Shown here: piece by piece, positions 7,130 to 48,906 of the stretch
How positions within the stretch are numbered: position 1 is the first letter of the stretch
How the letters are laid out: every line of letters starts with the position of its first letter
Assembly: GCA_000092065.1 (NCBI GenBank)
Contig: CP000592.1
Length of the DNA stretch: 64,000 bases
DNA from: Ostreococcus lucimarinus
Lineage: Eukaryota
Reading direction: 5' to 3' (one strand)
The notes under the pieces: model-generated
Told to the model about the DNA's origin: nothing
Databases searched by the model: none
The model's input: the letters and a program-made list of their open reading frames with translations, nothing else
Translations under genes and position numbers: made by a program

Positions 7130-7600
7130 CGCGCCGCCGCCGCCGCCGCCGCCGCCGTCCCGGTCGCGCGCGCGTTCGAGCCGCGCGCGCGCGCTCGCGC
7201 GTTCGAGCCGCGCCGTCGCGCGCCGCCGAGGCGCGCGCGATCGTCCGTCGTCGTCTCGCGCGTCGCGTCGTCCCGCGTCGCGCTCTGCGCGCGCGCGCGT
7301 CACTCCGCGTCGCGTCGTCGATGCCGTTCGTGCACATCGCGTGGTGCGTTTCGCCGCGCCGCGCCGCGACGCGACCTCGACTGACGCCGCGCGCGCGCGT
7401 GCAGGTTACCCAAGGCGTGTCGCACGCCCGAAGCGCGCAAGGAGGTCGCGCGCGCGGTGATCAACGCGCTGGTGAGCGTCAAGAGCGCGGACATCAGCGC
7501 CGATAAGGTGGTCGTGCGATTCAGCGAAGCGGTCGACGGGTTCGCGCTGCCGCCGGGGCACACGCGCGAGAGCGTGGACGCCAAGTAAGGCGAAGGCGAG

Positions 7601-8437
7601 ATGCGGCGCGCGGCGCGGGAGGCGGCGAGGGTCGGGACGCGCGGCGCGAGGGCGAAACATCAATTGGTGACGGTGGAGCTGGTGAGCGACACGATGTGAC
7701 CGAACGGATACATCGGGAAGCGACAGCTGCAGCGCGCGATGCGCGCGGTGCAGCGAGAACCTCTCGATGCGAACAATCCGTTGCGGTTCACGGTGCTGCG
7801 GGTGCCGTTTTTTCTCGAACCGGAGTATCCGCGAGACGAGGCGTGGAGCGAGACGAATCGAACGAGGTTGGAGCGGAAGTGGGGAGGAAAGCGGGAGTTT
7901 GACGCGCAAAAGAGGAGGCATCGATTGAAGGAGCGGGGCGAGGACGTGGGAATTAAGCACTTTAATCTCGATCGGTTGGCGAGCAGTACGATGGCGTCGC
8001 ATAGGCTCGTGCAGTGGGTAACGAAGAATCACGGCTGCACGGCGAGCGAGACGTTGTACAACGACTTGAACAAGAGACACTTTGAGGATGGGCAAAAGCT
8101 CAACGACAAGAGAATGCTCGCGGAGGCCGCGGCGAGAGTTGGAGTCGACGCGAATGAGGCGATGGAGTTTTTGCAGTCGGGCGAAGGCGAGATGGAAATC
8201 GAAGGCGCGCTGCTAATTTTGCGAAAGATGGGCATCAACTCCATTCCGAATTTCATCGTCGGAGCGCAACACATCTTGTCCGGAGCGGTTCACTCGTCGG
8301 AGTTGATCAAGTTGTTCAGACAAATCGAACGAACGGGCAAAGGTGCGCCCGATAGCGCGTTCGCGGCGGTGTTGGGCATCGGTGACGACGTCATCGCGCG
8401 CCCGCTCGACGCGTCGTATAACGAAGCCTCGGCGTGA
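7601..8437 (+). CDS. DsbA/FrnE-like thioredoxin-fold oxidoreductase and candidate selenoprotein. The in-frame TGA at 7697..7699 is read as Sec.
   Basis: Frame 2 is open from ATG 7601 to the stop at 8435..8437 except for one TGA. The translation around it, HQLVTVELVSDTM[TGA]PNGYIGKRQLQRAM...RFTVLRVPFFLEP, aligns on both sides with the FrnE/DsbA active-site region KIDVWSDIVCPWCYIGKHRLEKA...VEVVHHSFELDP. This places the TGA at the first Cys of CPWC. The downstream part (ORF 7739..8437) carries the rest of the DsbA fold (HFNLDRL, NSIPNFIV). Confidence 0.6.
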
Positions 8438-8611
8438 GCGCGAAGCGTCTAGCAGAAGCGAGTCGAGATGAAACGTGACGAAGTCGAGTCGAAAGCGCAA
8501 ATGAATTCGCGCTGGCTCGAGTCTGATTATACTCTCGCTCGCTTCGAGTAGACGCGTTATTTTTGAGTACGATGATAGCACATTTTTTAACAACAGTCAA
8601 AACGTTTTTTA

Positions 8612-10972
8612 TTATTCGGCCGGCTTGACTTCGACGGCGTCTTCTTGAACGAAACTGAACTCCATCTCACAATCCATCGCCCAATGGAACTTATCTATCA
8701 ACGCCTTGGTAAATACCACGTTTGGCGGCACTTCGTGACGTTTGCACCAAGAGAGCGTGATTCTGGGATCGAGGTAGTTGATTTTCGACGTGCCGAGCGA
8801 CACCGTTTTCAATTCTTCCTTCATGTTCATTTGAATCGCCAACTTGCTTTGCCTTTCTTTCAGCGCCGCGAGCTTCTTCTTTTGATTCTTATCGTCCGTC
8901 TTCTTTTTCATCTCGGCCACCTGCTTCGCGAGATCCTTCTTCTTTTCCGCGAGTTTTTCCATTTGCGCGTCGTGCGCTTTGCTCACACCCTTCTGGTGAT
9001 TACACAAAATCGCCACCTCCTTGTTCGCCGCGTCGTAAGTTGCTTTCTTTTGAAGCGTCGTATCATTCTTTTTCGTGTCTTTCAGCAAACGATCCAAAGT
9101 AATAGAGGCGTTGTACGTACGGAACACCTTGATCGTGAGACCGGGCATGAGAGTTTGAAGATGCGCGTTTACTTTTTGCGGGTCGACGTGGTCGAAGATG
9201 TCCACATCCGGACCCTTGCCCTGAACGAACCGTTGCAAGCACTTGTATGCAACCTCATCGATCTTGTGTTGTTGAAGATATTGGATGGAGTCCTTACCCA
9301 AGAAATCAAACTCGATGACGTTATCATCCATAAACTTGATGTGACCGGCGCGCAAGGTACACACGCCGACGGTGTCGGCGAGATCTTCATCCTTCTCGCC
9401 ACCAGCACGAAGGGCGAGTTTATCCACCAAGTAAGTCGCCACCGCTAACTGAGCCATTTCCTTGGATTCACTCATCATGTTTCTCTTGTAATCCTTCCGG
9501 ATCTTTTCGATATACTTATGCAACGAGCGAGCCTTTTCGTACTTCTTTTGATCGCTCTCTGCCTTGACCGTAGATGTGGCGCCGAATTGGACGTATTTCC
9601 AGTCCTTCACGTTGATGACATCGTTCCATCCCGCCAACCACGTGGCGGTGTCGTTATGAATCACCGCTTTCCACGAGTGTCCAGCCGGAGGTTCGGGAAC
9701 CTTAGCATCTTTTCCTATATTGATGGTGATGTCTTCCGGCACGACGCGACGCTTGATTTTCCCCATCTTCGGGTGCTCGCCGCGCCCGCGGAACAAGCCA
9801 GGCGGTTCGACGCGGAAGTTACCAACCTTTTCGCGGCGACCGTCGATAGTGGCCCACGTGTAAGGTTCCTCATCGATATCTTTTTGCGCCTTGATGCGTT
9901 TCTTCTCTTCGCTCGTCATCTCCTTCTTCTTCTCTCTGATCGCCAAGAAGTGCATGTACATCTTCGTAAAGTCACACTTGGAGAAGTCCGTGATGAACGC
10001 GTGCGGGCCGTTCTTCAAAGCCGCCTTGAAACCATCCATGAAGTTTTTCACGAAGACCGGTTTGGTCGCGTAGTCAGAGTCTTTCATCACGGCAAAGAAA
10101 CCGGCGATTTCTTCCTCGTGCGGCAAGAGTTTCACCTCTTGTCCGTCGTACACCAACGGCACGCCGTGCGGTTCGTACTCGGGCGGGAAAAGTACGCCTT
10201 TGTGTTCGAGCGTCTTCCACATGATCACCGCGCCCTTCTTCGCCCCAGTCTCGCTTCGGTTCGTCTTCGGGCGCTTCGGCGCCTCGCTTCGCGCGCGCTC
10301 CTTCTCCTCGCGCATTCGCTTCTGTTTCTTCAGCATTCGACGTCGCTCATCGTCGCTCAACCTGTCGGCCCGCGCGGCTTTTTCCAAGCGTTTCTTCAAC
10401 TTTTCTTCCCGATACTTGCGCTCTCTCTCCCGCGCCCGCGCCTCCTCCTCTCGTCGTCGGCGTTCGTCCAAACCCTGATCCGGTCGGCCCGCCGCGATCG
10501 GCGCCTCGTCGCTCGAGCTGTCCAACCTCGAGCTCTGCTTCGCCGGCATCGCCACCGGTCGCTTCGACATCTTAAACCCTCCACCAATCGGCGGTTTCGG
10601 CGTCACGATCGGCGGTCTCGCCACCGTCGCGCCCTCCGTCTTCGCGAAAAAGTTCGTCGCCGGCGCCCGAGACGGCGCCGTCGGTCTCCCCGGCGCGCCG
10701 ACGCTCGCCCCCGTCGCCCCGTTCGCCCCGTTCGCCGCGCCGACCGCCCGCTGCGCCAGCGGCACGTCATCATCGTCCGAGCTCGACGCCCCGTTCGTCG
10801 CGATCGCTCGTCCCGCGCTCGTCCCGCGCGCGTCGCCGCTCGCGTCTCCGATGGTCGCATTCCCATCCGAATTCTCCCGCGCTCGCGCCGCATCCGCGCT
10901 CGCCGCGGGCGCTCTCGCCGCGAGCGGCGTCTCGTCGTCGTCGCTCGACGAATCCAGGACGTTGGGCGCCAT
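8612..10972 (-). CDS. TOP1: DNA topoisomerase I (type IB).
   Basis: TOP1 core and catalytic C-terminus (KGAVIMWKTLEHKGVLFPPEYEP..., ...GTSKINYLDPRITLSWCKRHEVP...FHWAMD), preceded by a long charged/low-complexity N-terminal region. Confidence 0.9.
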   Translation of the reverse strand: MAPNVLDSSSDDDETPLAARAPAASADAARARENSDGNATIGDASGDARGTSAGRAIATNGASSSDDDDVPLAQRAVGAANGANGATGASVGAPGRPTAPSRAPATNFFAKTEGATVARPPIVTPKPPIGGGFKMSKRPVAMPAKQSSRLDSSSDEAPIAAGRPDQGLDERRRREEEARARERERKYREEKLKKRLEKAARADRLSDDERRRMLKKQKRMREEKERARSEAPKRPKTNRSETGAKKGAVIMWKTLEHKGVLFPPEYEPHGVPLVYDGQEVKLLPHEEEIAGFFAVMKDSDYATKPVFVKNFMDGFKAALKNGPHAFITDFSKCDFTKMYMHFLAIREKKKEMTSEEKKRIKAQKDIDEEPYTWATIDGRREKVGNFRVEPPGLFRGRGEHPKMGKIKRRVVPEDITINIGKDAKVPEPPAGHSWKAVIHNDTATWLAGWNDVINVKDWKYVQFGATSTVKAESDQKKYEKARSLHKYIEKIRKDYKRNMMSESKEMAQLAVATYLVDKLALRAGGEKDEDLADTVGVCTLRAGHIKFMDDNVIEFDFLGKDSIQYLQQHKIDEVAYKCLQRFVQGKGPDVDIFDHVDPQKVNAHLQTLMPGLTIKVFRTYNASITLDRLLKDTKKNDTTLQKKATYDAANKEVAILCNHQKGVSKAHDAQMEKLAEKKKDLAKQVAEMKKKTDDKNQKKKLAALKERQSKLAIQMNMKEELKTVSLGTSKINYLDPRITLSWCKRHEVPPNVVFTKALIDKFHWAMDCEMEFSFVQEDAVEVKPAE

Positions 10973-30200: not shown

Positions 30201-31990
30201 GCGAGGAAACGAAGGGCGACGACGACGACGACGGCATGTGGTGCTTCGACGTCGACGCGCGCGTCGAACGAGGCGGCGATGTCACGTCGCAGACGCTGAA
30301 ACACTGCGCGATGGAGCGGCCGCGAAAAGAGGAAGAGACGACGCGGGACGCGAAGACGGGACGGTTTGAATTCGGAAAGATGAGCGACGCGAACGACGCG
30401 GCGACGCCGGGAAGAGCGTTCGCGCTTCGGTTTGGAAGCGGGAAAACGACGCACGAGGCGAAGATAGGGGACGTGAAGGCGATATTTGGGAAGTTTGTGC
30501 GAGAGGGGAAGATGACGGTGGAGACGAAGGACGGGACGCGGGTGCTCGTCAGAGGGTCGCCGGGGGAGTGCGCGAGGTTGATGAAGACGCTGACGACGAT
30601 GAAATCGCAGCCGACGGAGGCGAGACAGGCGTATTTGAGGGGATTGCAACGATGTGCGACGTGCGCGGGGAAGTGCGAGGCGAATGAAAGGAAAATGGCG
30701 GAGCGTCAGGATAAGGCCGCGGCCGCGGCGGCGGCCGCGGCGGAGGCGAGCGCGGAGAAGAGGCGTCGACGAGAGACGGAGGAGGTTGAGCGACGCGCGG
30801 CGAAGGAATCCAAGTTGGAGGACCAGCTTCGCGCGCTGGAGGAGAAAAAGTTAAAGGTGGAATCCACGAAGGCGGAAATCGCGTCGCTGAAGATTGATAT
30901 CGAGGGTGAACGCGACGCGTTGCGACGAGAGAAGGAATCCATCGTTCAACGTCGGCGAGAGCTCGAAGACGAGCGTCGATTACTCGAGCGCCAATCGAGC
31001 GAAGCTGCGGAGGAGAGAGCGAAAATGGAGAGCCAACGTAAACTGGCTGAGATTGAAGGGCAACGGTTGGCGGAAGAGAAGGCTCGAAACGTCGACCGCG
31101 CGCGGGAACTCGCGGAGGAGAAGGAGCGCATCGCCAAGCTCGAGCGAGAGCTCGAGGAAGATCGCGAACGTCTGGCGTTCATGCAAAAGCATCAAAAGAA
31201 CGACGAGTTGCAAGCGCAACGCGTGCGCGAAGAGGCTTCTCGACGCGCGCAAGCTCGAGCGCAGGAAGCTCAAAAGCGCAAGGGAAAACCCGAGGCGATG
31301 TCCCCCGGGAGCTTCTACGGCAAAAAGAAGGCGAAGATAGTCATCGACGACGACGACGACTCTGACGATTCTAGCGCTGAGAAGGAAAATGAAAAGGCCA
31401 CGAACGAGGCTGAGGATGCGCGCCGAAAGGAACGCATCGCGAAACTTCGAAAGGCTGAACTCGAGAGGCAGCTCAAAGAAAAGCTTGCGAGGGAAGAGCT
31501 CGGTCGCAGACAAGCCGAGGCGCAGCAAAAGAAGGAGGCGGCGCGGCGAGCGCAGATGGATTCAAAACTTGAGCGCGAGCGAAAAGCGCGACAAGAAGAA
31601 GAGGCTCGTTCGCACCAAAAATGGAAGTCGCAACAAGCAGAGCAAATTCGCAAAAATTCTCGAGCCAACTCGGTGCCAACGGCGACGAAAGCGATGTGGG
31701 AATCACATCTGACATCGCTCGAAAATCTCAAGTCGCGCGCGGTGGGATCGCTGTGCGAAACCGACATTCCTTGGCCACCGGCGCACAACATCGCTTTCTT
31801 CGCCGGTGCTGATGGCTTGCATGAGAAGAAGAAAAAAGTGACCAAGGCGACGCTGTCGTGGCACCCCGATAAGTTTGAGCAAAAGTACGGCAAGTTACTG
31901 AAAGAAAGCGAAGCGCAAAAGATTAGAACGCGCGTCGCCGCACTGTCCTCCCAGTTCATCGAGCTGAGGCAAGCATTGAACGCGATGTAG
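30185..31990 (+). CDS. Coiled-coil protein with a C-terminal J-domain-like (HPD motif) region.
   Basis: A long charged E/R/K/A heptad-rich central region. The C-terminus LSWHPDKFEQKYGKLLKESEAQKIRTRVAALSSQFIELRQAL resembles the helix II/III region of DnaJ J domains (…WHPDK…). The start is uncertain: Met1 or Met 44. Confidence 0.5.
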   Translation: MDLNRSEETKGDDDDDGMWCFDVDARVERGGDVTSQTLKHCAMERPRKEEETTRDAKTGRFEFGKMSDANDAATPGRAFALRFGSGKTTHEAKIGDVKAIFGKFVREGKMTVETKDGTRVLVRGSPGECARLMKTLTTMKSQPTEARQAYLRGLQRCATCAGKCEANERKMAERQDKAAAAAAAAAEASAEKRRRRETEEVERRAAKESKLEDQLRALEEKKLKVESTKAEIASLKIDIEGERDALRREKESIVQRRRELEDERRLLERQSSEAAEERAKMESQRKLAEIEGQRLAEEKARNVDRARELAEEKERIAKLERELEEDRERLAFMQKHQKNDELQAQRVREEASRRAQARAQEAQKRKGKPEAMSPGSFYGKKKAKIVIDDDDDSDDSSAEKENEKATNEAEDARRKERIAKLRKAELERQLKEKLAREELGRRQAEAQQKKEAARRAQMDSKLERERKARQEEEARSHQKWKSQQAEQIRKNSRANSVPTATKAMWESHLTSLENLKSRAVGSLCETDIPWPPAHNIAFFAGADGLHEKKKKVTKATLSWHPDKFEQKYGKLLKESEAQKIRTRVAALSSQFIELRQALNAM

Positions 31991-41306: not shown

Positions 41307-44300
41307 ATGGGCGTCCGCGACCTGTGGCGGCTGCTCGAACCGAGCGGTCGTCGCGCGGACGCCGACAGCGTGCGAGGCAAGCGCGTGGCCGTCGACGCGT
41401 CCATCTGGCTGGTGCAATTCATCAAGGCGACGCGCGACGAAGACGGCGACGTCGCGGCGCGCGCGCACGTCGCCGGGTTCTTTCGCAGGATCGCGCGGTT
41501 GCTGCGTCACGGCGCGCGACCGGTGTTCGTGTTCGACGGGGCGACGCCGGCGCTGAAGAGGCGGACGACGGCGACGCGACGACGCGCGCGGGAGCGGAGC
41601 GCGGCGAAGGTGCGCGTGGCGGCGGAGAAGGTTTTGTTGAACGAACTGAAGCGACGGGCGCTGGTGGCGGCGGCGAACGGAGGGGAGGTGGGAAATGGAG
41701 GGGGGGTGGCGATCGCGGCGCGCGATGGGGACGATGGAGACGACGGCGACGAGCGGGATTCGGAGGCGGAGGCGGAGGAGGAGGAGGAGGAGGAGTTGGA
41801 CGTGTTCGTGCCGGACGGCGAATCGATCGATCCCGAGGTGCTCGGCGCGCTGCCGCCGTCGGTGCGAATGGAGGTCGTGATGCGAATGCGGGATAAGCGC
41901 GTGGCGGATAATCGAGAGCATTTCGCCGCGGCTTCGGGAAAGATGCAAGATTTCAGCGCGTTGCAGTTGGAGACGTATCTTAAAGGGACGAAATTGAAGC
42001 GAGAGATCGATCGCGTGATGCAGAAATCGGATTTGAACGATCCGATGACGTCCAAACGCGTCGCGGCGCAGGATAATCGCGATTTTATATTTGCCGGACC
42101 ATCTTCGTCGAATCGAACGACTTCGAGCGGAGCGCTGGCGCTCGCGCCGCCGCAGCCGCCGCCGTCGACGTCGGGGGTGTTAGGTTTGACGACGGGTACG
42201 TTTGCGTCGGATCAACTCGCTGGGGTGCGAACGGGGCGACGTGGTCGCGCGCCGACGGCGCTCGTCGCGCCGCAAGAACGATTTTTAGTGACGAACCTTC
42301 ACCCGACGCTTCCGACGCCATCAGTCGCCAAATCCGTCGCGGAGACGCCCATCGTGTTGAGCAAAGAGCCATCGACGTTGGATTTGCAAATCTCATTCAC
42401 CACGGAAAATATCAAAGCTGCGGCGAAAGACCCGTTATTCGCGAGCGCGGACGACGCCACGGCGGCCGATGAAGACGAAGACGACATCGTCGCCGTTGCC
42501 GACGCCGACGAGGAATGGGAAGACGTGGAAGACGACGTCAAACCGTCGCCCGCGAAACTCGCGCTTGCCGCGCCGTCACCGCTAGCCCGTCATGACGATG
42601 ACGTTATGGATTTGAGTGAAGACGCTGACGACGCCGATGATGAGTCACACGGCGATGGAACCGCGTTGAAACGCAAGAGCGTGTACTCTCTCAGCCACGG
42701 TTTTCTCAAAGGGCGAAGCTTGGGTGGATGGGACGCCGACGAAGAAGAGGCTGCTGTGCGAGCCGCGGCGGAGGCTGAAACAGAAGCAGACGTCGACGCC
42801 GCAATAGCCATCGGTGTGCGAGGAGATGAAGAAGCGTTAGCGCCGTTGAATCACGACGACGAGAGTGAGCAGTTGCAAAGGGCCATCGCGATGAGCGTCG
42901 CTACGGCGCGCGAGGAAGAGTCGCCGACCAAGGCAGCCGCAGACGGTGTGGAAGTTGAAGCACAATTAGAAACGAACGAGAGTGAAGACGGAAACAACAA
43001 TGATGATGATGACAAAGATGACGACGGGTTGAAAGCAGCGATAGCGATGAGTTTGGCCAAGCACGTCGACGATTCTTTGAAACAGTCGGATGATTCTAAA
43101 GAAGTAGACGTCGTCGAGATTGAAGAAACGAAGCAAGAAGAAGAAATCGATTCGGAAGAAGAGCAGTGGATCGAGGCGGCGCGCGAAGCTGAACGCATCG
43201 CCGAGCGCGCCCGAGTGGAACGTCTAATTTGCGAAGCAGAGGAAGAGCAAGAGCGTCTGAAGCATGAGATTCGTCAAGCCAAGAAAGGTGCCGAACACGT
43301 CACGGATGAGATGTACCGAGACGTCCAAGAACTGCTCACGCTTTTCGGAATTCCTTACATCATCGCGCCGCAAGAAGCTGAAGCGCAGTGCGCGTATCTC
43401 AACCAGCACAAGCTTGTCGACGCCGTCATCACGGACGATAGCGATGTCTTTCTGTTTGGCGCATCGCACGTGTACAGAAACTTTTTCTCGGAGAAAAAAT
43501 ACTGCGAAGTCTACACCGCAGATCGTATCAAGAGAGAACTAGGACTCGATCGAGATCGTTTCATTCAACTCGCGCTCTTGCTCGGGAGCGATTACACCGA
43601 AGGCGTCGGCGGCGTCGGCATCGTGAACGCGCTCGAAATCGTCAGCGTGTTTAAAGGAAACGTTATGGATGCGAGTAAAGCGTTCAGAGAGTGGATTGAT
43701 ATGGAAGAACTCACCATGGTTCCCGAACGCTTGCTTCCTTCGCCGTCGAAAACGTCCGCGGAGAGCGCGACGGACGACGCGATCACCGCCGCCTTCAAAG
43801 AGAAACATCGCTCGCTGAAAAAGAGTTGGGAAGTTCCCGCGAATTACCCATCCCTAGAAGTCGTCAAAGCGTACCAGTATCCGTCAGTCGATCAAAGCGA
43901 AGAAACTTTCGAGTGGGGAAAGCCTGACTTGGACATGCTTCGCTTGTTTTGCATCAAGACGTTGTCGTGGACGCGAGACGCGGCGGATCAAATTTTGCTC
44001 CCGATGATGAAATCGTGGTCGAAACGCGACGACCAGCGTCGCATCGATAGCTTCTTCGAAACTTCTCACGCTGTGAGCTCGCGAGTGGCGAAATTCCGCT
44101 CGAAACGTCTCGGAGACGCGGTGAAAAATCTCACCAACGCCTCGGGATCCGAAGTCGCGGCGATGATTCTCAAGAGAACTCGCGAGGAGGCGTTGGGAGA
44201 CGTCATCGTGGATTACGACGATGATCAGCACGACAACGCGGTTTCCGACCCGGAACCTAAACTCGACGACGGCGACGACGCCGATTTCGCTGACTTGGAC

Positions 44301-45810: not shown

Positions 45811-47164
45811 ATGAAATCGTGTTTTCCCATCGTCATCGCTCGACCCGCGCGTTCGCTCGCGTCGTCGCGGTCGCCGTCGCCGTCGTTCGCTCCGCTCGCG
45901 TCTCGCCTCGCCTCGCGTTCGCGCCACAGCTCGGCGCGCGATCGATCGATCGATCGATACATGTTCCCGACGAGCGTGCGCAAACCATCGCCCGGACCCG
46001 CGCCTGACGCGAGCGAAAGCGACGAGCGCGCGGCGTCTCCCGCGCCGTCGGAACCGAGCGCGCGGACGTCGGACGACGAGCGCGTCGAGCGCGACTACGA
46101 CGAGGGCGCGGCGGAATCGGCGCGAGAAAAGTACCGACTTCAGGGCAAAGCCGGGTGCGATCGCGTCCTCGAAGCGCTGCGACGGGAGAAAGAGAGCGTG
46201 AAAGAGACGCGACAGTACCTGTTCGGACGGTTGTTGAACCTGCAGCTCGAAGAGGCGGTGCTGCGGGATCATCTGAACGCGACGGTGAACGCGGCGAGCG
46301 ATGCCGCGAGGGAGGGAAACGGGGGATCGGGACGTGAAGTGGAAGCGAGGGAAACGCAGAGCGGCGCTGAAACATAAGAGACCCGAACAATTGGTGGAGT
46401 CGCTGATTCGGGAGTTCGGCGTGGTGCGAGGGACGCGCGCGAGGGGGCAGGTTTGGATCGGGGCGACGCGGCGGTTGGGGTATCTGTTGGAGCAGACGTG
46501 TTTGGGGCGAAGAGCGCGCGCGGGGACGGAGATTGGCGTGCCGTTGACGCCGAATGGGGCCGGAAACGAACTCGTGATACGAGTCTGCTGCGAGGATGCG
46601 TATTACATGTGCGCGTTTTTGCGGTGTTTAGTGGTGAGCGAGGACGGGGACGAAGACGCGGCGCGGGAAATTCGGCTCGGGTTAGGGACGCGGGAGATGG
46701 ACTGCGAGACGCTTTGGCGCGTGTTTCGACGCGATTGTGGGCACGCGTTCGCATTGAAGTGCGCGGCGACGGTGCACTTCAGACTCACGGGTTGGTTACC
46801 GCGCAGCGGATTACAATACGGTGCAGATTTCGTGTTATACCAGCGTCACCCGTCGCTCGTGCACAGCGACTCCACCGTGGTGCTGGTGCCCGACGCCGCC
46901 GCGCGTAGGAGCTTTCAAATCGACGACGACGACGCGCCCCATCGCGGCGTCGCGCTCGACAACGGCTGGCCCGACTGGCCCGATTTGCAGGCTACGTCAA
47001 GATTGGCCGTGCAGGTGAGCAAGAAATTCATCGAGGCGCACATCTCGGCGCCGAAAAACGTGAATTGGAACGAGCCGTCGTGCTTACAGCACATTTACGT
47101 CAACGAGATTGAAGTCTCGCGATTCAATACGAAAAAACACTTGGAGAATTACCAAGGAGATTAG
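45811..47164 (+). CDS. SEN2: tRNA-splicing endonuclease catalytic subunit (SEN2-like). Two ORFs in different frames, probably joined by an intron. Preferred model: exons 45811..46257 and 46595..47164.
   Basis: ORF1 carries ...TRQYLFGRLLNLQLEEA (compare Arabidopsis SEN2 ...CCFGRLVV...QLSFEEAFFL). ORF2 carries DAYYMCAFLRCLVV...ETLWRVFRRDCGHAFALKCAATVHFRLTGWLPRSGLQYGADFVLYQRHPSLVHSDSTVVLV, which is collinear with SEN2 (...VDLWRSM...ILYKAYSHLRSKNWIVRSGLQYGVDFVVYRHHPSLVHSEYAVLV). Joining at the GT donor after LEEA (46258) and the AG acceptor 46593..46594 reproduces the LEEA-hydrophobic continuity. The alternative is a 94-nt intron, 46285..46378. Confidence 0.6.
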
Positions 47165-47214
47165 AGAATGTGTACATCAGTTACAAACTTGTTGAATAAA
47201 AGAAAATGATCAAT

Positions 47215-48906
47215 TCATCCATCGACGGTCACCGTTTCGTCGACTTTCGAAAAATTTTTATAAAACGCCGTGAAGTGTTTGAAACAGATATCGATGTCTT
47301 CCGTGCCGCACATCTCGCGCACGGAGTGCATGCTTAGTTGAGGGATACCCACGTCTACGGTGCGGATGCCGACGCCGGCGGCGATGATCGGACCGATTGT
47401 GGAACCACATCCCATGTCGTTGCGCACCACAAAGTCTTGCGTCGGAACGTTTTCCATCTTGGCGCACTCACGAAACAAGTAAGACGTCACCGCTGTCGTC
47501 GCGTATCGCTGGTTGGCGTTGTGCTTCACCACCATGCCCTTGTGCATCTTTGGTTGATGATTATCTTCGTGCTTATCCATATAATTCGGGTGCAACGCGT
47601 GCGCCATGTCGGCGCTGACGAGGAAAGAGTTGCGCACGGTGCGTTCAACGAGACCTTCGCCGCCTTGGTTCGGCGCCGCCTTACTAAGCGCCGACGCCGC
47701 GCGTTTGATGGATTCAAACATCATCGGTGATCCGCCGCCATAAAATGACGAGCTTCCAACCTCCTCGTTGTCGAACAGCGCCACCATTTGCACGCCGGTT
47801 TGCTCGGCGAGCGCCGCCGCGCTCGTGGCTTCGATTAAAGCCCGAACGCCGCAATAGCTCGACGCCAAGTTGTCCAATCGTCCCGAAAAAATAAACTCGC
47901 GCGCCGCGCCACCGATGACGGATGGCTGCGTGTCACAAACATTCAGTTCAAAGTCAGCGATATCGCCTGGTGCGCACCCGAGCTCTTCCGCGAGAACGGC
48001 GAGCAAAAGAGCGTGATGGGCGCCGCCGTCGTTGGCCACCTTTTCCTCGAGTTCGCCTTTTATCGCGGTGGCAAGAATCGGCGCAAAATTCGTCTCCGTG
48101 TTCGGTTTGAACCCATTCGTCGAGATTTCACGATCAAGATGAATCGCGAGCGTGGGAATGCGAATGATCGGTCGATCGATGCGCACCAACTCGTGCGCCA
48201 ACTTTCCGTCTCGTTTGACGAGCACTCGCCCCGCGACGCTCAAATCGCGGTCGAACCACGTGTGCCACAACCCCCCGCCATACGTCTGCACGCCCACTTG
48301 CATGAAACCACCTTTTTTAATTTTTGACACCGGTTTCAACTTCGGGCACGGCGAATCGGTGTGCGCGGCGACAACGTTGAACCCGTTACCCGGTTCGTAC
48401 GCCCCGCCCACGGCGAACGCCACCAACGCGCTTTGGTTTCGCGTCACGTAATACTTTCCATTTCTCTTCAGATCTCCCCACTCTACGCTTTCACTGATCT
48501 TGGAGTATCCTGCAGCTTCTAAAAGCTTCACCGACGCCTCCGTGGCGTGATGCGCCGTCCACGAATCGTTCAAAAAGTCAACCAAATCGTTCGCCACGCT
48601 CGCCGCCGCGCCGCCGTTCACCGTCCCGAACCTTCGAATGTCCCGTCGGTCGTCTCGGCGTCCGCGCGCGTCGCTCTCACGCGCGAGTCGCGCGTTTATG
48701 CGCGGTGCGGCGCCACTGAACGCGCACTCGGGCGCGCGCATCGCGCGCACGCGGCACGAAGTCGCGCTGCGCGTCGAGGTTTGTTGGGCGACTCGCGGCG
48801 ACGCCGACGCGCCGTGCGTCGCCGACGCGCGTCGCGCGCGCGCGTCGACGGCGTATCGGTGCATGACGTATCTCGTGACGCGCGTGGCGATGCGCGCAGG
48901 AGGCAT
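47215..48906 (-). CDS. DNPEP: Aspartyl aminopeptidase (M18 family).
   Basis: Collinear with M18 aspartyl aminopeptidases (…FNVVAAHTDSPCPKLKP…GGGLWHTWFDRDLSVAGRV…GRLDNLASSY…ALFDNEEVGS…TQDFVVRNDMGCGSTIGPI…). The N-terminus has a presequence-like extension. The start is uncertain, with candidates 48906, 48864 and 48741. ATG 49038 abuts the stop of the upstream gene. Confidence 0.8.
   Translation of the reverse strand: MPPARIATRVTRYVMHRYAVDARARRASATHGASASPRVAQQTSTRSATSCRVRAMRAPECAFSGAAPRINARLARESDARGRRDDRRDIRRFGTVNGGAAASVANDLVDFLNDSWTAHHATEASVKLLEAAGYSKISESVEWGDLKRNGKYYVTRNQSALVAFAVGGAYEPGNGFNVVAAHTDSPCPKLKPVSKIKKGGFMQVGVQTYGGGLWHTWFDRDLSVAGRVLVKRDGKLAHELVRIDRPIIRIPTLAIHLDREISTNGFKPNTETNFAPILATAIKGELEEKVANDGGAHHALLLAVLAEELGCAPGDIADFELNVCDTQPSVIGGAAREFIFSGRLDNLASSYCGVRALIEATSAAALAEQTGVQMVALFDNEEVGSSSFYGGGSPMMFESIKRAASALSKAAPNQGGEGLVERTVRNSFLVSADMAHALHPNYMDKHEDNHQPKMHKGMVVKHNANQRYATTAVTSYLFRECAKMENVPTQDFVVRNDMGCGSTIGPIIAAGVGIRTVDVGIPQLSMHSVREMCGTEDIDICFKHFTAFYKNFSKVDETVTVDG

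Follow-up and report, generated by a model that had tools for sequence, protein, structure and literature searches.

The 64,000-nt stretch of Ostreococcus lucimarinus CCE9901 DNA analysed here (the window) almost certainly contains, at 8455-8545 on the plus strand, the SECIS of a DsbA/FrnE-like mRNA; its 5' core reads GUGA, and the AT-rich 66 nt that follow it form a separate feature, which probably holds the poly(A) signals of both flanking genes. The hairpin belongs to the 3' UTR of the DsbA-like gene that has the Sec codon, within the 174 nt (8438-8611) that separate two convergent stop codons: the TGA of the DsbA-like gene, which ends at 8437, and the stop codon of the minus-strand TOP1 gene at 8612-8614. 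A preliminary description of the window had marked out this interval by the same two stops, had proposed the DsbA-like gene as a candidate selenoprotein and had expected a SECIS between the two genes. All three points hold: a hairpin with a conserved core is present in the interval, the in-frame TGA of the gene is kept in 40 of 40 loci, and the encoded protein is identical to the published PDI2. The coordinates of the individual features are given in Table 1.

The canonical eukaryotic SECIS is an AUGA...AA...GA kink-turn hairpin that is bound by SBP2. By analogy with this established eukaryotic mechanism, the G-A/A-G kink-turn core of the hairpin would bind SBP2, and SBP2 would recruit eEFSec-GTP-Sec-tRNA(Sec) to a ribosome that pauses at the UGA 7697-7699. 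This codon, 778 nt upstream of the SECIS, would then be decoded as selenocysteine and not as stop, and the predicted product is a DsbA-like oxidoreductase with Sec as its active-site residue; the motif around it, U-P-N-G, has no resolving Cys. Since Sec decoding requires the SECIS to be inside the transcript, the poly(A) site of the DsbA-like mRNA is expected downstream of the hairpin.

Table 1. Features of the selenoprotein gene, its SECIS and the adjoining 3' end of TOP1
Feature	Position	Strand	Description or basis
CDS, DsbA/FrnE-like selenoprotein	7601-8437	+	translation; 278 codons including Sec
Sec codon UGA, in frame, residue 33	7697-7699	+	first Cys position of DsbA CxxC; here U-P-N-G
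Whole SECIS, type 2 (form 2)	8455-8545	+	MFE fold, covariation, model R1; only strict-quality hit
Basal stem, outer extension, 7 bp	8445-8451 with 8549-8555	+	GCGUCUA with UAGACGC; whole-UTR MFE fold
Helix 1, 13 bp	8455-8462 and 8464-8468 with 8533-8545	+	U8463 bulged; MFE fold
Decoy ATGA	8468-8471	+	A8468 closes helix 1; U8469-A8471 in 5' strand of internal loop
5' core GUGAC	8475-8479	+	G8475 unpaired, then U-G-A-C of quartet; invariant GUGA
Helix 2, 9 bp	8480-8481 with 8522-8523; 8484-8490 with 8514-8520	+	fold and covariation
Unpaired AAA ('AA' motif)	8492-8494	+	invariant alignment columns A41-A43; G8491 also unpaired
Long mini-stem	8494-8498 with 8509-8513; 8500-8501 with 8506-8507	+	loop UGAA 8502-8505; fold
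3' core UGAU	8524-8527	+	G8525 and A8526 partner A8478 and G8477; G and A invariant
AT-rich island between SECIS and TOP1 stop	8546-8611	both	GC 0.318; presumed 3'-end processing of both mRNAs
TTTAACA	8586-8592	both	UUUAA (+, 8586-8590, after U6 run) overlaps UGUUA (-, 8592-8588)
DNA topoisomerase I (TOP1), convergent	8612-10972	-	ORF; Pfam Topoisom_I_N, Topoisom_I, Topo_C_assoc

The single in-frame TGA of the DsbA-like coding sequence stands in the context VELVSDTM-U-PNGYIGK, and translation ends at the stop TGA 8435-8437. When Sec is modelled as Cys, residues 24-230 match the Pfam DSBA domain (PF01323) with E=3.8e-16, and this match begins upstream of the TGA. The RefSeq CDS covers only 7739-8437, and the ORF 7739-8434 is an exact match to XP_001420657.1/ABO98950.1. 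This record begins at Met47, which is located 3' of the Sec codon, and is 46 residues short at its N-terminus; the redox-active residue, the Sec of the active site, is thus absent from the public record. The missing N-terminus (within 7601-7738, plus strand) is rich in Arg and Ala and looks like an organellar targeting peptide; it is much longer in Micromonas-like orthologs (the labels Micromonas-like and Bathycoccus-like were inferred for the orthologs from composition and divergence, not from names).

Orthologous loci were collected by exact-protein lookup, by scanning metagenomes with an alignment of the family (80 loci) and by homolog search. Deduplication left 40 distinct 3' UTRs, with Micromonas-like and Bathycoccus-like lineages among them. 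The loci of the scan had been recruited through tblastn matches that share 58-100% identity with the window protein. In each of these 40 distinct loci the TGA codon is retained inside SDTM*PNG[YFA]IGK, and the peptide upstream of it, HQLVTVEL[VI]SDTM, is also conserved across the 40 loci. Nearly all automatic gene calls of the family, including those from metagenomes, start at a Met after the TGA. Gene calls of this kind, combined with a conserved upstream peptide, typically mark a selenoprotein that has gone unrecognised.

Gene, Sec codon and SECIS type are already known. In a SECIS-first search, Lobanov et al. 2007 (Genome Biol 8:R198, PMC2375036) described 29 selenoproteins in O. lucimarinus, and Additional file 2 of that study lists 'O. 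lucimarinus PDI2' as Sec-containing. The PDI2 entry, MRRAAREAARVGTRGARAKHQLVTVELV / SDTMUPNGYIGKRQLQRAMRAVQREP...RVPFFLEPEYPRDEA, equals the translation of 7601-8437, N-terminus and Sec position included, and by this sequence identity the protein of 7601-8437 is the published selenoprotein. The finding is ordinary, because gene and SECIS type were published in 2007, and its impact beyond annotation hygiene is small: the public record and the metagenome calls of the family are truncated at Sec. The 75Se labelling of that study was carried out in O. tauri and only on the proteome as a whole (PMC2375036).

Sec-containing DsbA/FrnE proteins are known from algae and marine invertebrates (Jiang 2012, PMC3473315; Liang 2019, PMC6627142; Jiang 2020, PMC7539508). 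In the later surveys the family is called DsbA or FrnE, and is reported to contain Sec in Mamiellophyceae and to rank among the most widespread algal Sec families. The window protein shares with this family the DSBA (PF01323) fold and the replacement of the first Cys of CxxC by Sec. In contrast to bacterial Sec-DsbA, for which UxxC is typical, the motif here is U-P-N-G and a resolving Cys is missing. The O. lucimarinus paralogue 'PDI3' has UPWC (PMC2375036).

The entire 3' UTR (8438-8611) folds into one long hairpin with an MFE of -56.6 kcal/mol (z=-2.1 vs shuffles), which recurs in sub-windows. The SECIS part of this hairpin starts 18 nt 3' of the stop codon. An internal loop of 7 x 5 nt separates helix 1 from the core, for which a non-Watson-Crick quartet is predicted in the register U8476-U8527, G8477-A8526, A8478-G8525 and C8479-U8524; helix 2 begins with the next base. 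Two pairs above the quartet, helix 2 is interrupted by a 2x1 internal loop that consists of A8482 and G8483 on the 5' strand and G8521 on the 3' strand. The AAA at 8492-8494 begins 13 nt 3' of the A in UGA and 12 nt 3' of C8479, and its last base, A8494, could pair with U8513. The SECISearch pattern has an unpaired AA(R) ~10-13 nt 3' of UGA-N. In the mini-stem, the A-C mismatch 8499/8508 corresponds to a G:C pair in a close relative (L008). The features by which a SECIS is recognised are thereby found together, downstream of a coding sequence that contains an in-frame UGA: (A/G)UGA with its GA partner, a stacked helix 2, the spacing of the AAA, and helix 1 with its internal loop.

When the core is forced to be unpaired, the same architecture is obtained at -35.1 kcal/mol, compared to -37.2 kcal/mol for the unconstrained MFE. 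The unconstrained fold deviates only in part of the core, where G8477-C8479 are paired with 8521-8523. This deviation arises because nearest-neighbour models credit no energy to sheared G-A pairs, and pairing within the core is usual for SECIS in MFE folds.

The preliminary description had assembled the element from an ATGA, an AA and a TGAT, with gcgagtcgag and ctcgctcgc as flanks that could pair. These flanks do pair: in the MFE fold they fall in the two strands of helix 1 (8455-8468 with 8533-8545), and the 3' TGAT at 8524-8527, of which G and A are invariant, had been correctly picked. The remaining two motifs had been misplaced, however. The ATGA at 8468-8471 is not conserved and has no helix stacked upon it, the real core being the GUGA that lies seven bases downstream; the AA at 8480-8481 is not unpaired but inside helix 2, and the functional AAA is found at 8492-8494.

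These positions follow from the orthologs. In A2, an unsupervised MAFFT alignment of 12 Ostreococcus-clade UTRs, the invariant columns are GTGA (8475-8478), AAA (8492-8494), GA (8525-8526) and a few helix positions. Across helix 2 and the mini-stem, 94.7% of the cells are paired and 8/16 pairs change on both sides; for helix 2 alone, 96% of the cells are paired and both-side changes are seen in five of the nine pairs. When the 3' partners were slid by 1-3 columns, only 20-41% of the cells were paired, and none of 500 column shuffles reached the observed pairing or the observed covariation score. Helix 1 is present in every ortholog and is built from unrelated sequences. The distant ortholog L078 follows the same design, GUGAC-GAUUCCAUUCG-GAAAAUUUAUAAA-CGAAUGGAAUC-CGAU, as seen by inspection of pattern and pairing, and so does L069. 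The comparison of orthologs settles the position of the SECIS core unambiguously. Over 8438-8611 no difference is seen among 14 O. lucimarinus-type contigs, and therefore population variation in the UTR is uninformative.

An AUGA-type SECIS, with the ATGA at 8468-8471 as 5' core, the AA at 8480-8481 and the same 3' TGAT, is consequently very improbable, even though its three motifs occur in the correct order, its core can be forced unpaired in a fold that is still stable (-35.4 kcal/mol), and an identical AUGAAACGUGACGA string is present in L078. In the 12-UTR alignment the columns of this ATGA read TTGC, GATA, GGTA, GTTG etc., and most orthologs lack it. The bases directly above its quartet would be A-C, C-U and G-G, so that helix 2 cannot stack there, and in the constrained fold the helix still begins at G8477, within GUGA. 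The AA would follow ATGA-N by only 8 nt, and would come to lie in helix 2. In L078, a perfect 11-bp helix adjoins GUGAC/CGAU and not the upstream AUGA. In the SECIS of O. lucimarinus, a G directly precedes the quartet in all but one case, and this sole ATGA-type element belongs to a glutathione peroxidase gene (PMC2375036). A search for the textbook AUGA can mislead the reader to a decoy that is a few bases off.

The covariance model R1 was built from A2, with the window copy as part of its seed, and its match to the window (77.5 bits, E=3.9e-19 at 8452-8548) is therefore expected by construction. Outside the seed, R1 recovers the 3' UTR elements of the Micromonas-like loci L057, L060, L061 and L063 with E values of 2e-6 to 3e-3. 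In a wider alignment of 15 sequences, which was fitted to R1 and hence leans towards structure, 95.4% of the cells are paired, 9/13 pairs are compensatory with 31 cells changed, and the slid controls reach 20-47%.

Another reading has no role for the hairpin in selenocysteine insertion and explains it as a generic terminator or 3'-end structure, or as arising from antisense overlap; the TGA at 7697 would then be a true stop or the end of a uORF, and the protein would start from Met 7739. In RefSeq and the automatic gene calls the protein does begin after the TGA, the hairpin comes close to a palindrome, R1 weakly matches the minus strand of some loci, and an Rfam call is missing. We nonetheless give this reading almost no credence. 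Upstream of the TGA, the protein sequence of 32 codons is conserved in all 40 distinct loci, and the Pfam DSBA match starts there. The invariant GUGA/AAA/GA motifs are strand-specific, because their complement would read AUCA...UUU...UCAC, and the hairpin accompanies the TGA in every ortholog despite wholly different helix sequences. Moreover, the protein has already been published as a selenoprotein (PMC2375036).

Several orthologs show variants of the core motifs. Within one Micromonas-like lineage, L057 and L058 have an AUGA core, and the close relative L061 has GUGA. In the apical bulge of L057-L063, which are Micromonas-like, the unpaired bases beyond helix 2 are G-A and the next base, C, is paired (…CGCGCC-GA-CUUCGA…), compared to AA/AAA in the Ostreococcus clade. 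Within the first 120 nt after the stop codon, L064 and L077 carry AGGA at the position of the 5' core, vs AUGA in their sisters L065 and L071 (CCTAGGACGG vs CCTATGATGG). Non-canonical SECIS of the GGGA type occur in apicomplexans, and the AGGA of L064 and L077 is reminiscent of these. The ENA scaffold of L001 (SIER19-1...47513) looks chimeric by its sequence: its 5' end encodes an N-terminal variant that belongs to a distant lineage (PNGFIGKRHLQNAMREVTRTP, also in L054), and its 3' UTR is that of O. lucimarinus base for base.

The frequency of SECIS-like patterns was determined with a home-made scan of both strands, which combined an (A/G)UGA core, an AA at 10-14 nt, a GA partner, an upper stem formed by a single hairpin, and a basal duplex. 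In its loose form, the scan returned 10 matches in the 64-kb window and 7-23 in each of twelve dinucleotide shuffles. The nine matches other than the SECIS occur at the frequency seen in shuffled sequence and were rejected, and the ATGA...AA...TGAT pattern by itself does not exceed chance. In contrast to this, a match as compact and stable as 8475-8527 was found once in the window and in none of the 12 dinucleotide shuffles (both strands). That the functional SECIS is located elsewhere, for instance downstream and antisense to the TOP1 coding region, with 8455-8545 as a stabilising UTR structure, is hardly credible: the intergenic space of just 174 nt would allow the convergent transcripts to overlap and the DsbA-like UTR to enter TOP1, but no other compact SECIS-like match exists on either strand of the 64-kb window, R1 finds nothing else above noise nearby, and the conservation of the core motifs sits at 8475-8527.

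The further R1 matches in the window, 41993-42067 (plus strand; 12.8 bits, E about 0.2), 30833-30919 and 47156-47248, are all weak and were discarded. The stretch 41993-42067 (plus strand) contains CGUGAUG...GAAA...CCGAUGAC, in which the distance from GUGA to CGAU is only about 23 nt; this is too short for a SECIS, and the match is thus probably noise.

Both structure prediction and SECIS covariance models had been named in the preliminary description as a check on the element. The former returned an MFE hairpin into which the quartet register fits, whereas the curated models gave no SECIS match on the window copy. An Rfam scan of 7400-9000, and then of 8440-8560 (121 nt) at E<=10, detected no SECIS family but only noise matches to snoRNA and miRNA models. 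Among eight orthologous loci, SECIS_1 was detected by Rfam only in L014, with 20.9 bits, which is below the gathering score of 35. This alignment of L014 with SECIS_1 runs end to end and places AUGA of the model on GUGA (8475-8478), AAA on AAA (8492-8494) and CUGAU on CUGAU (8523-8527). The extra A8482 and G8483 in helix 2, together with the long mini-stem, are a plausible reason why Rfam misses the window copy. SECIS predictors are known to miss elements in Mamiellophyceae (Liang 2019, PMC6627142), and generic models such as Rfam SECIS_1 overlook the form with GUGA and a long mini-stem that is found in this group.

Compared to Rfam RF00031 (SECIS_1), the element shares helix 1, the internal loop, the UGA/GA core, the stacked helix 2, the unpaired AA(A) 12 nt after UGA-N and the location in the 3' UTR. 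It differs from this family by the G before UGA, the 2x1 loop in helix 2 and the longer mini-stem of the window copy. The Ostreococcus SECIS described in 2007, for which long mini-stems are typical (PMC2375036), resemble it in being of type 2, in the unpaired G before the quartet (GUGA) and in the long mini-stem, and its own gene, PDI2, is one of those that the study lists as Sec-containing. Differences of substance to these elements are not apparent in a comparison that was made by description and not base for base; the nucleotide sequence of the PDI2 SECIS was not found in the supplementary text of PMC2375036.

The second component of the intergenic interval is its AT-rich tail. The preliminary description had called the interval as a whole an AT-rich island, a term that fits its distal part, 8546-8611, but neither the complete interval (GC 0.454) nor the hairpin part 8452-8548, which has a GC of 0.53, near the local coding level. 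The 66 nt of the tail have a GC of 0.318 vs a window mean of 0.608 and belong to the lowest 0.12% of all 66-nt windows. Five such AT-rich regions exist in the 64 kb and none other lies within 25 kb of 8546-8611, in agreement with the statement that this is the sole markedly AT-rich stretch in the neighbourhood.

The expectation that the region provides the poly(A) signals of both genes agrees with its motifs, UUUAA on the plus strand and UGUUA on the minus strand; an exact UGUAA does not occur in 8438-8611. Among the poly(A) signals of O. lucimarinus, UGUAA dominates with 30%, its one-base variants include UUUAA with 10.5% and UGUUA with 4.6%, and a U-rich stretch precedes the signal (PMC6413133). 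A signal of this type is expected 10-30 nt upstream of the cleavage site. Like these green-algal signals, the tail is AT-rich, lies 3' of the coding region and combines a run of U with an A-rich pentamer downstream of it, and its pentamers are among the listed variants; unlike them, it lacks the exact UGUAA, and the variants of the plus and minus strands overlap in one 7-nt spot. On the basis of these motifs, whose place is conserved in sister clades, a role of the tail in the 3'-end formation of both convergent genes is plausible, and it would put cleavage of the DsbA-like transcript 3' of the SECIS.

A more specific reading, which we regard as tentative and rather unlikely, is that 8586-8592 constitutes a single shared bidirectional 3'-end signal that is read as a UGUAA variant on both strands. 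If this were true, the 3' ends of the two convergent mRNAs would overlap by at most a few dozen bases, and the SECIS would be just inside the selenoprotein transcript; this reading concerns 3'-end formation in a very compact genome and not the SECIS. Sister Ostreococcus clades have TTGTTATAACAA-type palindromes at the same relative place, with UGUUA on both strands. In L014, L015 and L043, perfect or near-perfect TTGTTATAACAA palindromes are located about 150-180 nt after the stop codon, with a conserved ATCACA just upstream. The contigs fetched for the exact protein and for two relatives (short Logan contigs) are all genomic or metagenomic fragments that run into TOP1.

The synteny of the selenoprotein gene with TOP1 is found in orthologous loci as well. 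On its 5' side, a small tautomerase-like gene (MPFVHIAW..., one short intron) lies within 7321-7600 on the plus strand; its TAA at 7587-7589 precedes the ATG of the DsbA-like gene at 7601 by 11 nt. In every Mamiellophyceae ortholog inspected, the two genes likewise follow each other head to tail, a few codons apart. The two ORFs are in the same frame here, TAA plus 4 codons apart; a read-through fusion of them was rejected, since the orthologs do not keep the two in a fixed frame relation. Judging from their arrangement, the pair may be dicistronic, or the promoter of the DsbA-like gene may be embedded in the upstream gene.
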